From contig CAZMCB010000003.1 in NCBI GenBank assembly GCA_964564895.1, positions 6,800-64,904 on the forward strand: a stretch of DNA of 58,105 nucleotides, in the 5' to 3' direction. Both the position numbers and the translations under genes were made by a program. Numbering within the stretch: the first letter of the stretch is position 1; each line of letters opens with the position of its first letter. Positions 54,996-57,724 of the stretch are shown here, piece after piece. Source of the DNA: an uncultured Pseudomonadales bacterium. Its GTDB lineage: Bacteria; Patescibacteriota; Microgenomatia; UBA1400; MFAQ01. The notes beneath the pieces are model-generated. The model was given only the letters and a program-made list of their open reading frames with translations, did no database searches and had not been told where the DNA came from.

Positions 54996-55550
54996 ATGGA
55001 AATCACAGAAAAAAACATAACCTACGACCTAGTGTCAAATTTATCAAAAAAACGTCTTGTTTTCCAAGAGGCGATTATTGTTGCAGACAAGAATACGGTA
55101 GATATCGCCTCAAACTCGATTAAAAAGGAGTCCGAAAACCTACTGTCTATTTATGCACCAATTCCTTCAAACACGGAAGATGGCTATCTGGTCTGTGAAC
55201 TGCTAAATAGGTATTACAACCAATTCTTTGATCAACAAAAACTCGACTTTTTGAAACAAAATATTGCTCTTGGTAGAGAAAAATATCCAATAAATACCGA
55301 GATTAAAAAAGACATCGACGAAATAAACACAGCTTCATTCCAATATTTTGGATCGAAAGACATAATTGGAGAGAAGACGATCGAACTAAAAAAAATGTCA
55401 AATCCAATTGCAAATGCTATCTTGAACACTCACATTGAAGAACTTTCATCAAGACACAAGATGGCAAACAAAATCATGAACATGCCAATAACCAATAGAA
55501 TATCTTGCTCAGAAAGCCAAACACATCTAATTGTCAATTTTAATAAATAA
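54996..55550 (+). CDS. Soluble hypothetical protein, candidate immunity/partner
   Basis: 184 aa, no signal or TM; between proteins B and C, its stop overlaps the ATG of C (TAATG). Confidence 0.6.
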   Translation: MEITEKNITYDLVSNLSKKRLVFQEAIIVADKNTVDIASNSIKKESENLLSIYAPIPSNTEDGYLVCELLNRYYNQFFDQQKLDFLKQNIALGREKYPINTEIKKDIDEINTASFQYFGSKDIIGEKTIELKKMSNPIANAILNTHIEELSSRHKMANKIMNMPITNRISCSESQTHLIVNFNK

Positions 55551-57724
55551 TGGGTGCATTCATAGCCACAATATTTACAGTAGTTGTTGTAGCAATTTCT
55601 TCTATTGTCATCACCAATCCCAATATCAACTTTGATAATCGCTCCAAGGCTATGATGACAGAGGGTGGAGGAGGAAATATTCCAAAGACCATAGCTAAAC
55701 CTACAGCGAAACCAATACTAAAACCAACAGGCACTGCCAACGCTCAAATTGGTGCGACTCCTTCACCCAAACCCACATCAACCCCAATTCCATGTAGTTG
55801 TGTTGGTGGGCACCTTACAGGTAATTGTGGTGCCGGAACAGGATCCCCGTGTTCAGCAAACACTACCACAACCACCCCCTCTCCAACATCTTCAGGCACC
55901 GACCTCCTTGCCGAAAAGAAAGAATGCCAAATGAATGGTGGTGCATGGACAAACAACAAATGTGTTTACCCCACTTCTACTGCCTCTCTTCCCAAACCAA
56001 CAACTTCAAATTCTTCTGCATCTGACTCCTGCGGAGATGGTATGGTCTGTTCAAGCATATCCAGCTCATCGTGTATTAATGGAGATGGTGAGCCGACACC
56101 TTGTGTAAAGAGTGGCGGGGCTACCGGCAACTGTTGTTCTCCAATCAACCAACCCACCACGACACCCACCACCTCTCCAACCAAAGCTGTAGCCACTGTC
56201 ACCCCCACCTGTGTCAAAGAAGGAGGCACATACAAAGACGGTGTTCCTTGCTGTTCTCCTCTCGTCAAAGTAGTCACTCCCTACGGAGCATACTGTGGCA
56301 AAAAGGGAGAATGTACCCCTGGTACGAAAAAATGTCAGATTGGAGGAAACAACACATATTTTGAATATCTTTGTGACTCTTCTGGATATTTCCAACAAAA
56401 CAAACGCTGTGACTTTGGATGTTTCAATAACTCTTGTAGTACTGGAGGCTGTACTGCGGGTCAAACCAGATGTGACCCCTCAAGACCAAATGAACTAGAA
56501 ACCTGTACTGGAACTGCTTGGTCTGGTAAGTCTTGTGACTATGGTTGTGAAACCGTAAGTAGTACAAAGGCTCAGTGTAAAACTTTAAGTTGCACCAATC
56601 CTGCAGGAACTCCAAATGTAACCAAGATCTGCAACGATGCTGGAGGTTACAACTACTGCAGCAGTGATGGTAAATGGTACTCCAAGAAGTGTGAAGGTAC
56701 TTCTGTTTGTGAAAAAGGAGAATGCATTTCAAAATTCTTAAAAGGAATAGGAGAAGCTTGTGCATCTGAGTCTGAATGTCAAACTGGTTATTGTTATTCA
56801 GGCAGTGATACGCTTGGTGGAAGTCCTTTTGATACAAAAGACACTTGTCATGCTAACCCAGTGTCGGTGATGGATGATCTCAAGGTGACTGAAGCAAAAG
56901 GCACAATTATTGGAGGCGCAATAGTCGCAGCAGTCGCCGTTCCAGAAATACTATTAGTTACTAATGTGATAGATGATGCCGCCACAATTTCTCAGTGTGC
57001 ACTTACTCAAGACCCAATAGCATGCCAGTGGGCCTTTGCTACTGTTATGAATCCTGTTCCAGGAACCTCTGTTGCAAGAGAAGTTGTTGAAGAAAGTGCC
57101 GATCTTCTCAAGTACACAGATGATGCGGTAAATATTGCAGATAGTTTTGATAGTGTTTCACTTAGAGCAAATAACGCACTTCAAAACGTAACAAGAGAAG
57201 AAACACTAACACTCTATCACGGATCACAGGGAGATCTTGAGTCAATTTTAAACAATGGAATATATGGAGTGGCAGATGGCGGCCCCACACTTTCAAACCA
57301 TATGATGGATACTCCTTTAGAATTTGCTTCAGGAAACGGCGTAAGTATAATGCAATCATCACAAATAAAAAATATGGGTGGTTACATCGTTGAGGTCAAA
57401 GTGCCTCAAAGTAAGGTTGCCACTACAGATCTTGCTGATAGTGAAATTTATTATGCCCTTTCTGCAAACAATCCATTACAGCCTAACGCTTCCTCTCATA
57501 ATCATGTAGCTCTTTCACCGAACTTCATCAAAAACATTTATCCTGTTTCGGCCAACGGAGTCGTCAATTCAGCTATACCCGAGACTGAATGGGCATCATT
57601 TGCAAGCCAATTTAATGTGACGAGGAATAACGTAATTGAGGAACAATTATATTTACGTCTAAAAAACATGCTCCCCAACGAAAGTGAAGAAGTTATTCAA
57701 AATTTATTTCAAATGTACAAATAA
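55550..57724 (+). CDS. Modular Cys/Thr/Pro-rich surface protein C with C-terminal ADP-ribosyltransferase-like domain
   Basis: Same N-terminus; TLYHGS (57218)..SILNNGI..PTLS..LEFA..GYIVEVKVP..SEIYY..LSPNFIKNIY follows the ART-fold strand order. Confidence 0.6.
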   Translation: MGAFIATIFTVVVVAISSIVITNPNINFDNRSKAMMTEGGGGNIPKTIAKPTAKPILKPTGTANAQIGATPSPKPTSTPIPCSCVGGHLTGNCGAGTGSPCSANTTTTTPSPTSSGTDLLAEKKECQMNGGAWTNNKCVYPTSTASLPKPTTSNSSASDSCGDGMVCSSISSSSCINGDGEPTPCVKSGGATGNCCSPINQPTTTPTTSPTKAVATVTPTCVKEGGTYKDGVPCCSPLVKVVTPYGAYCGKKGECTPGTKKCQIGGNNTYFEYLCDSSGYFQQNKRCDFGCFNNSCSTGGCTAGQTRCDPSRPNELETCTGTAWSGKSCDYGCETVSSTKAQCKTLSCTNPAGTPNVTKICNDAGGYNYCSSDGKWYSKKCEGTSVCEKGECISKFLKGIGEACASESECQTGYCYSGSDTLGGSPFDTKDTCHANPVSVMDDLKVTEAKGTIIGGAIVAAVAVPEILLVTNVIDDAATISQCALTQDPIACQWAFATVMNPVPGTSVAREVVEESADLLKYTDDAVNIADSFDSVSLRANNALQNVTREETLTLYHGSQGDLESILNNGIYGVADGGPTLSNHMMDTPLEFASGNGVSIMQSSQIKNMGGYIVEVKVPQSKVATTDLADSEIYYALSANNPLQPNASSHNHVALSPNFIKNIYPVSANGVVNSAIPETEWASFASQFNVTRNNVIEEQLYLRLKNMLPNESEEVIQNLFQMYK

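Follow-up and report, generated by a model that had tools for sequence, protein, structure and literature searches.

A predicted surface protein with an ADP-ribosyltransferase-like tip and a polymorphic-toxin-like build on an uncultured bacterial contig

Introduction

ADP-ribosyltransferases (ARTs) carry their catalytic triads on strands beta1, beta2 and beta5 and fall into clades with H-H-h, H-Y-[QED] or R-[ST]-E signatures (PMC9825190). The present analysis concerns a 58,105-nucleotide stretch of contig CAZMCB010000003.1 from an uncultured bacterium, hereafter the window, and a gene near its downstream end whose 724-residue product, ART724, finishes in an ART-like tip. A sequence-only reading of the window had drawn attention to this tip and to orf184, the small open reading frame (ORF) that directly precedes the ART724 gene.

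ART724 is one of three paralogues encoded at 48344-57724 on the plus strand. The three have one hydrophobic N-terminus in common (MGALIATIFTV..AISS), continue with Cys/Pro/Thr-rich modules and differ in their tips, which are of the CHAP type in the 696-aa protein (CHAP696), an HExxH peptidase in the 842-aa protein (MP842) and ART-like in ART724 (Table 1).

Table 1. Features of the ART724 locus, in window coordinates
Feature	Position (nt)	Strand	Evidence or remark
ART724, 724-aa modular protein, presumed surface-exposed, with ART-like tip	55550..57724	+	ORF; paralogue of 48344-50434 and 52456-54984; orthologue in L014
N-terminal hydrophobic anchor or signal MGAFIATIFTVVVVAISSIVITN, aa 1-23	55550..55618	+	19-residue hydropathy 2.7; export inferred
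Cys/Pro/Thr-rich stalk, aa 24-440, with 37 of the 40 ART724 cysteines	55619..56869	+	weak DUF7107 match at aa 379-416
Pre-tip hydrophobic Gly/Ala-rich segment TIIGGAIVAAVAVPEILLV, aa 452-470	56903..56959	+	hydropathy 2.26
Last ART724 cysteine pair, C483...C492; zero cysteines beyond	56996..57025	+	
ART-like core, aa 549-672	57194..57565	+	family alignment, AlphaFold, Foldseek, PDB profile matches, dN/dS
Core layout, first part: beta1 H557; alpha1 ILNNGI; beta2 PTLS (T580, S582); alpha2 PLEFAS			
Core layout, second part: beta3 GGYIVEVKVP (Y612, E615); beta4; beta5 with E632 before it; beta6-7			
C-terminal two-helix extension, aa 673-724	57566..57721	+	model helices at tip residues 136-181; only in some family members
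orf184, predicted soluble, 184 aa	54996..55550	+	ORF; stop overlaps ART724 start (TAATG)
MP842, 842-aa paralogue with HExxH metallopeptidase tip	52456..54984	+	HETTH at aa 713-717, nt 54592-54606
CHAP696, 696-aa paralogue with CHAP tip	48344..50434	+	Pfam CHAP E = 5e-8
SIMPL/DUF541 membrane-anchored protein	51666..52436	+	Pfam E = 1e-20
tRNA-Cys(GCA) gene, 3' 38 nt only	57787..57824	-	downstream edge of variable region

The ART-like tip and its sequence family

The sequence-only reading had listed six short motifs in ART-fold order. All six lie in the single ART724 ORF, within aa 556-664 (nt 57215-57541): YHGS (aa 556-559, nt 57215-57226), ILNNGI (aa 566-571), LEFA (aa 590-593), YIVEVKVP (aa 612-619), SEIY (aa 631-634) and LSPNFIKNIY (aa 655-664, nt 57512-57541). 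Single-sequence searches with the tip gave nothing significant in Pfam, NCBIfam, the PDB, PADLOC or PHROGs, and neither the tip nor its alignment retrieved anything in word-indexed protein searches. Exhaustive HMMER searching of 1.84 billion representative proteins recovered just five relatives (E 5e-38 to 8e-4), in each of which the domain is terminal or nearly so, the protein being a similar stalk protein or part of one. With the ART724 tip and an orthologue at the comparative locus L014, these form a family of seven; the alignment used for modelling and profile searches held six sequences. No relative of the tip family was found in 185,579 GTDB representative genomes scanned with the tip and with the N-terminal anchor, a metagenome scan added only contigs of already-known lineages, and scans of viral contigs gave zero matches for the tip and for orf184.

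In the family alignment, the elements TL.HG, I, NG, G, A, GY, V, P, LS, N and L.P..I are invariant across the seven members. The motifs are more than chance, since they are conserved columns of a protein family. The window core and that of the L014 orthologue are 76% identical, with a ratio of nonsynonymous to synonymous substitution rates (dN/dS) of 0.32; such purifying selection marks the domain as functional. The C-terminal two-helix extension is not present in the members P0004 and P0006. A ParB-like domain was suspected after the ART core of P0007, for which Pfam gave no match.

At another locus, L001, the ART-tip gene (3369-5401) is broken by an in-frame TGA (3561-3563) and a frame change near 3905-3953, with its last 498 codons open; it is either a pseudogene or a recoded gene. 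Genes of this type are called as the same two pieces in L001, L002, L003, L004 and L008, the lesions having been inspected in L001.

Fold and candidate catalytic residues

The proposal that the tip has an ART fold is supported by four independent lines of evidence, each of them modest. The first is a search of all PDB sequences with the family profile, which gave 12 matches at E <= 10. Nine of these are His-type ART-fold enzymes, namely DarT1 (E 0.066), six Tpt1 entries (0.14-1.8) and two PARP16 entries (0.4). None is significant singly, and their weight comes from mutual agreement: all nine align at the same stretch, strand beta1 'LyHGs' and the helix 'sIL.nGl'. The second line is structural. 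AlphaFold run on the tip sequence alone gave a mean predicted local distance difference test score (pLDDT) of 34, and the six-sequence alignment was used instead; the resulting AlphaFold2 model reached a pLDDT of 87.4 and a predicted template-modelling (TM) score of 0.82, with the five models spanning pLDDT 85.8-87.4. In a Foldseek search of the PDB, the top four matches to this model were chains of the Rhs ART toxins TreX and TreTu from Xenorhabdus (probability 1.00, E 7e-3 to 1.5e-2), with TM-scores of 0.58-0.60 normalised to the target and a root-mean-square deviation of ~4 A. Weaker matches were the PltB-holotoxin entry 9kyb_B, pertussis S1 and cholera A1. The split beta-sheet order of the fold, beta1-helix-beta2-helix-beta3..beta6, is found in the tip model, at moderate scores. 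The third line is a match in BFVD to a giant-virus PARP at E = 0.03. The fourth is that PARP alone among Pfam families was matched by several members (2/6 members, best E 0.08, below the gathering threshold). Taken together, the models and profiles make it likely that the tip adopts an ART fold, and it belongs to no described ART family.

One catalytic candidate is H557, which lies on beta1 within TL[YF]HG[ST], is invariant (7/7) and corresponds in the profile alignments to the beta1 His of Tpt1, DarT and PARP16. Strand beta2 reads PT[LF][ST]D (AQFSD in P0007), its Thr aligning with the second His of Tpt1, and Y572, on a short strand before beta2, varies across the family. Just before beta5, the column of E632 ('SEIYYAL') holds E in all but two of the seven members, which have D and G, respectively; the PARP motif 'NEYIVY' resembles the stretch around this residue. 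On beta3, E615 ('GGY..E') is kept in five members and replaced by Q in the other two. Candidate partners of H557 are T580/S582 on beta2 and E632 before beta5. In composition, all seven ART cores are acidic (isoelectric point, pI, 4.1-5.3) and contain zero cysteine, and within ART724 as a whole 40 cysteines precede aa 493 and none follow it.

Anchor, stalk and exchangeable tips

The N-terminal anchor is common to the three window paralogues, P0004, P0006 and the L014 protein. Beyond the anchor, several comparisons point to exchange of parts. Residues 520-642 of MP842, immediately before its tip, are 40% identical (E 1e-17) to aa 44-154 of P0003, where the segment reaches the start of the ART tip, and P0004 shares part of the same module; one pre-tip module can thus carry either a peptidase or an ART. 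The tip of MP842 itself resembles Tox-MPTase4 (PF15640) in its HExxH motif and C-terminal position, with a small soluble ORF following the MP842 gene. Its match to that family scores 19.4 bits (E = 1e-3) against a Pfam gathering threshold of 25 bits; nothing significant was found for it in Pfam, NCBIfam, PADLOC or PHROGs, and it has zero PDB relatives.

Within the orthologous pair, the ART proteins of the window and L014 are 58% identical in the stalk and only 30% in the pre-tip region, against 76% in the core. Synonymous divergence is 0.41 in the core (window 57194-57565 vs L014 13803-14327), 1.6 in the stalk and 3.3 in the pre-tip region, with a non-core range of 0.9-3.3. The low value of the core suggests that the tip was recently transferred between different carriers. 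The L014 protein also shares an N-proximal module with the CHAP paralogue of the window. Judged by these sequence comparisons, the carrier proteins are mosaics. The ART724 family is polymorphic-toxin-like in combining conserved N-terminal and central regions with tips that differ at the C-terminus.

Two side observations concern the same proteins. The C-terminal helices of MP842 and ART724 share LRLxNxxPNxxEE (window 54750-54800 and 57650-57700; 8/15 identical, pairwise E = 0.005), which may be a common post-tip element or a chance, weakly supported likeness. At L011, a 118-aa mini-paralogue (2697-3053) stands right after the P0004 ART-tip gene; it has the anchor, a juxtamembrane NPDFSFDPRS and one Cys-rich module, and is tipless.

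The position of the tip relative to the membrane depends in part on the second hydrophobic segment of ART724. A Gly/Ala-rich segment of this kind precedes the tip in ART724, P0003 and P0004, is marginal in P0006 and is not found in P0005, P0007 or MP842; we infer that it serves membrane insertion or translocation. A cysteine pair like C483...C492 precedes the tip in P0003-P0006 and in MP842. If aa 452-470 were a true transmembrane helix, the tip would lie in the cytoplasm of the producer, which supplies NAD+, and would serve a surface receptor as its output domain. The hydropathy of the segment is near that of the N-terminal anchor, and P0003 and P0004 have similar segments. This topology is nevertheless very unlikely: P0005, P0007 and MP842 lack the segment and P0006 has it marginally, the conserved Cys pair comes after it, the same pre-tip module is used with a peptidase or an ART tip, and a tip-swapping locus of variable presence is unlike a conserved signalling gene. 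Since some ART-tipped members lack the hydrophobic segment, the tip most likely sits on the stalk side, outside the cell. It is reasonable to suppose, from the Cys-rich stalk, the Cys-free tip and the relatives without a second hydrophobic segment, that the exported tip acts inside another cell.

An exported tip need not be a delivered toxin. It could instead work as an extracellular enzyme (an ecto-NADase), or as a non-catalytic host-binding module on an adhesin-like stalk, and immunity would then be unneeded. The relatives indeed show zero immunity genes, zero delivery machinery adjoins the gene, the sister CHAP tip would be a cell-wall hydrolase acting outside the cell, and the third catalytic position varies. 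Several observations make this alternative doubtful, however. The His-Gly of beta1 is invariant and NAD-pocket-like motifs are strongly conserved; extracellular NAD+ is scarce; a Cys-free tip on a Cys-rich protein is what would be expected of a domain made for a reducing cytoplasm; and the nearest structures are toxins that act intracellularly.

Gene gain and loss among comparative loci

A close comparative locus, L014, matches the window at 81-93% DNA identity across ~14 kb, with the gene order PGK - GAPDH - SIMPL - ART-tip gene - tRNA-Cys remnant. It is without window 48277-50531 (CHAP696) and without 52560-55541 (the body of MP842 and orf184). The 5' 100 nt of the L014 ART gene correspond to the start of MP842 and equally to that of ART724, and between such 5'-end repeats recombination can add or remove the MP842 body and orf184 as one piece. 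In L013, which is more distant, everything from SIMPL through the ART gene is missing. Relative to L014 and L013, CHAP696 is an insertion between PGK and GAPDH; the same slot in L016 holds a different 516-aa CHAP gene and a 170-aa minus-strand ORF.

Elsewhere, the ART-tip gene has SIMPL upstream and a tRNA-Cys 19 nt downstream in L010, has SIMPL upstream and the transmembrane-anchored mini-paralogue downstream in L011, and is surrounded by unrelated neighbours in L009 and L012. A SIMPL/DUF541 gene adjoins a stalk-family gene in L001, L002, L010, L011, L014, L016 and the window, the exceptions with known flanks being L009 and L012. In L001, whose ART-tip gene is the broken one, and in L002 this adjacency is kept despite a different orientation and different neighbours. 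The SIMPL/DUF541 protein may be a functional partner of the stalk family.

Downstream, the variable region ends at the tRNA-Cys(GCA) piece, which runs from the 3' strand of the anticodon stem through the acceptor and agrees at every position with the 3' end of the tRNA-Cys genes that are intact in L010 and L013. The window lacks its 5' half, and in the whole 58 kb ARAGORN found zero tRNAs. The remnant looks like an att-like scar bordering the variable region. A partial Rfam match (E 0.0085) had suggested a transfer-messenger RNA end for the T-arm at 57796-57813; this assignment was rejected, the sequence being the 3' part of tRNA-Cys(GCA). Beyond it, window 57859-58104 (-) is 72.7% identical in DNA to part of a LAGLIDADG_3-like gene located in L013 between GAPDH and tRNA-Cys. 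It represents either a homing-endonuclease-like gene or what remains of one, truncated where the window ends.

orf184 and its partner

The translational coupling noted earlier is real: the last A of the orf184 TAA is the A of the ART724 ATG (AAATAATGGG). As also noted, orf184 follows the peptidase gene, starting 11 nt past the stop of MP842, and its product is predicted to be soluble (maximum 19-residue hydropathy 0.8, pI 6.3). Its G+C content is 33.5%, vs 40-45% in its neighbours. An open frame of 184 sense codons would arise by chance at this G+C content with a frequency of ~1e-6 by our base-composition estimate, and, with its exact fit between the two neighbours, orf184 looks like a real gene. 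Zero relatives were found in ~15 billion proteins or in any fetched locus, nor was there a significant match in the PDB, Pfam, NCBIfam, PHROGs or viral contigs. The sole other copy is identical and lies on a 1.1-kb read-assembly contig. Against PADLOC, orf184 matched only Csm6 (E = 0.029 over 25 residues); ART724 and MP842 had zero matches to PADLOC defence models.

The expression signals at this junction set ART724 apart. No Shine-Dalgarno motif was found before any of 31 plus-strand genes, and in 16 of 40 window genes the start codon is preceded by a TATAAT-like box that begins 11-16 nt upstream of it, a pattern which suggests that leaderless or very-short-leader mRNAs are the rule in this genome. 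A scan for promoter and terminator consensus sequences performed no better than on shuffled sequence. Directly before the ATG of every family gene at every locus stands TACAATAAAnnTTA, except in ART724. The latter is the only family gene without the conserved TACAATAAA box before its ATG, its upstream DNA being the end of orf184, which for its own part has TAAAAT at -14..-9 from its start. This arrangement makes orf184 and ART724 a probable two-cistron unit, in which ART724 comes second and is expressed by way of the TAATG overlap. The orf184-ART724 arrangement is derived and lineage-specific.

This coupling keeps alive, at low probability, the first hypothesis of the sequence-only reading, in which orf184 would be a cytoplasmic immunity protein for the ART tip, encoded upstream and translationally coupled so as to be made first. 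Stop and start overlap by one base; the missing family box of ART724 and the TAAAAT of orf184 make co-expression probable; and orf184 is soluble, without relatives and fast-evolving or foreign, like many immunity proteins. The arrangement would equally be expected if a cassette of tip plus immunity gene had been inserted before the ART gene. The comparative loci make this assignment unlikely all the same, and the proposal fares poorly against them. The ART orthologue of L014 has neither orf184 nor another small neighbour, the P0003-P0007 loci have no conserved small cytoplasmic neighbour either, and orf184 is missing exactly where MP842 is missing. In addition, the immunity genes of characterised ART toxins lie downstream, as for TriTu (PMC9825190) and TriX (PMC11606950). 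Because the ART tip occurs in L014 and at other loci without such a neighbour, it does not need orf184.

What follows the tips differs between the two paralogues. Downstream of the ART tip lie a tRNA-Cys remnant (window, L014), a tRNA-Cys (L010), an opposite-strand SIMPL gene (L001), HisRS (L012) or the anchored mini-paralogue (L011). Downstream of the MP842 tip, orf184 occupies the position of an immunity gene. The other option raised earlier, that orf184 gives immunity to the tip of a different protein, 'protein B', is favoured for MP842 by the joint presence and absence of the two genes and by the order of toxin, then immunity. On the comparative sequence evidence, orf184 appears linked by descent to MP842 and not to be a dedicated ART partner.

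Comparison with known systems

The best structural neighbours of the tip model are TreX and TreTu (8s2m, 8s2n, 9gco; PMC11606950, PMC9825190). Like the tip of ART724, they are compact ART cores of ~100-130 residues that end a large modular polymorphic toxin, and the fold of TreTu was likewise missed by sequence analysis (PMC9825190). They differ in their catalytic signatures, TreX being R-S-ExE and TreTu having an Arg on beta1, whereas the invariant residue there in the ART724 tip is a His; the sequences are 10-13% identical. The carriers are also different, an Rhs cage with a type VI secretion system (T6SS) in the one case and a hydrophobic anchor with a Cys-rich stalk in the other. TreX and TreTu each have their own immunity gene (TriTu is encoded downstream, PMC9825190), whereas none was found for the ART724 tip family.

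In sequence, the best matches to the tip family, weak as they are, come from the His-type ARTs DarT (8baq), Tpt1/KptA (7kw8, 9ld3, 8tfi) and PARP16 (4f0d), which share with it the beta1 'hHG[ST]' followed by the helix '..sIL.nGl'. E. coli DarT1 and P0005 even have the 9-mer LTSILDNGL in common. Assignment to any one of these families finds no support, however. For DarT, 32 residues (beta1-alpha1) align at E 0.066, with no Pfam DarT match and no macrodomain neighbour. For PARP (PF00644), the best E is 0.081 in 2/6 members, under the gathering threshold. For Tpt1/KptA, there was no Pfam PTS_2-RNA match at E <= 10; the second His of Tpt1 (VHLS) is replaced by Thr or Gln in the tip family, and the N-terminal domain of Tpt1 is not in ART724, which has the stalk and pre-tip region there. 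The secondary-structure order of the Tpt1 ART domain parallels that of the ART724 tip. ARTs that modify DNA or RNA are, as we take it, typically basic, in contrast to the acidic tip cores.

As a whole protein, ART724 is built like the polymorphic toxins CdiA, Rhs, LXG and MafB (PMC9825190), with an N-terminal export element, a repetitive centre and a variable C-terminal toxin. The use of one pre-toxin module with different tips, the tandem paralogues and the strain-variable locus are further likenesses. Unlike these toxins, ART724 has no recognised trafficking domain, no pre-toxin Pfam domain and no immunity gene after the ART tip. No paper on polymorphic toxins or ART effectors in Patescibacteria was found in the literature.

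Wider gene context

The window also encodes dnaN, LeuRS, TsaD, YidC, GroEL, PGK and GAPDH. A P-loop ATPase of the VirB4/TraG type lies at 13707-15551 (Pfam E = 1.5e-28), ~40 kb upstream of ART724, flanked by large proteins of 646-925 aa with zero Pfam matches (4514-12087 and 15558-18335); together they may form a type IV secretion-like cluster. No evidence links this ATPase to ART724. VirB4 is present in 2,417 of 3,035 Patescibacteria assemblies (PMC12102498). A type IV pilin is encoded on L008, a contig carrying the tip family, and the gene context of the window, the VirB4/TraG-like ATPase and this pilin are compatible with an origin in Patescibacteria. Window 39590-42784 encodes a 1064-aa protein with a HerA/DUF87-type ATPase region and a C-terminal NUDIX domain, conserved in L013-L016 (with DUF8128 there too). 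NUDIX enzymes have ADP-ribose derivatives among their substrates.

Discussion

The reading that we favour, if by a modest measure of confidence, is that ART724 is an exported, anchored stalk protein with an ART-like tip and a polymorphic-toxin build, and that orf184 belongs in a unit with MP842. The stalk would display the ART tip outside the producer cell. On contact with another cell, whether host or competitor, the tip would enter, perhaps aided by the hydrophobic pre-tip segment, and would use the NAD+ of the entered cell to ADP-ribosylate a target. A protein target is likelier than a nucleic acid, given the acidic ART core. orf184 and MP842 would constitute one insertion/deletion unit, with orf184 placed where an immunity gene for the MP842 tip would sit. 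Having lost the promoter-like box of the family, ART724 would be transcribed and translated behind orf184. What the sequences show directly is the architecture, the predicted fold, conservation with purifying selection, the exchange of tips and the indel structure; export, delivery, use of NAD+, the target and the function of orf184 form the proposed part of this reading.

A number of points tell against this reading. No ART sequence match is significant on its own, every Foldseek E-value exceeds 1e-3, and the AlphaFold model was built on just six sequences. The acid before beta5 is missing in P0005, and E615 is replaced by Q in two members; for these reasons the catalytic residues remain candidates. 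The anchor is without a positively charged N-region, and the second hydrophobic segment of ART724 makes its topology uncertain. Pfam and NCBIfam scans linked no secretion or delivery apparatus to ART724 and found no domain of type V, type VI or type VII secretion systems (T5SS/T6SS/T7SS). The link between orf184 and MP842 comes from a single presence/absence comparison plus gene order. Finally, no relative has an immunity gene beside the ART tip, whereas a toxin used against its producer's kind would usually be accompanied by one.

A bolder proposal goes further. An uncultured, probably ultrasmall episymbiont would show, on anchored Cys-rich stalks, host-directed, immunity-free tips (CHAP, Zn-peptidase and His-type ART), the ART would enter the cytoplasm of the partner cell by itself via its hydrophobic pre-tip region, independently of known secretion, and the adjacent SIMPL protein would be a conserved helper. 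We regard this as speculative and improbable.

If the tip is an active ART, it would represent a new and very rare ART sequence family, with seven known members and no Pfam or NCBIfam model, and would provide a concrete candidate effector in a lineage without a representative among GTDB genomes. For orf184, the peptidase tip of MP842 is the likelier partner than the ART tip. More broadly, the locus follows the logic of polymorphic toxins, in that tips are swapped on shared pre-tip modules and genes come and go between strains, but has neither the customary immunity gene nor a secretion system. It thereby raises the question of whether such surface proteins serve as weapons among cells of one kind or as tools for acting on a host cell.

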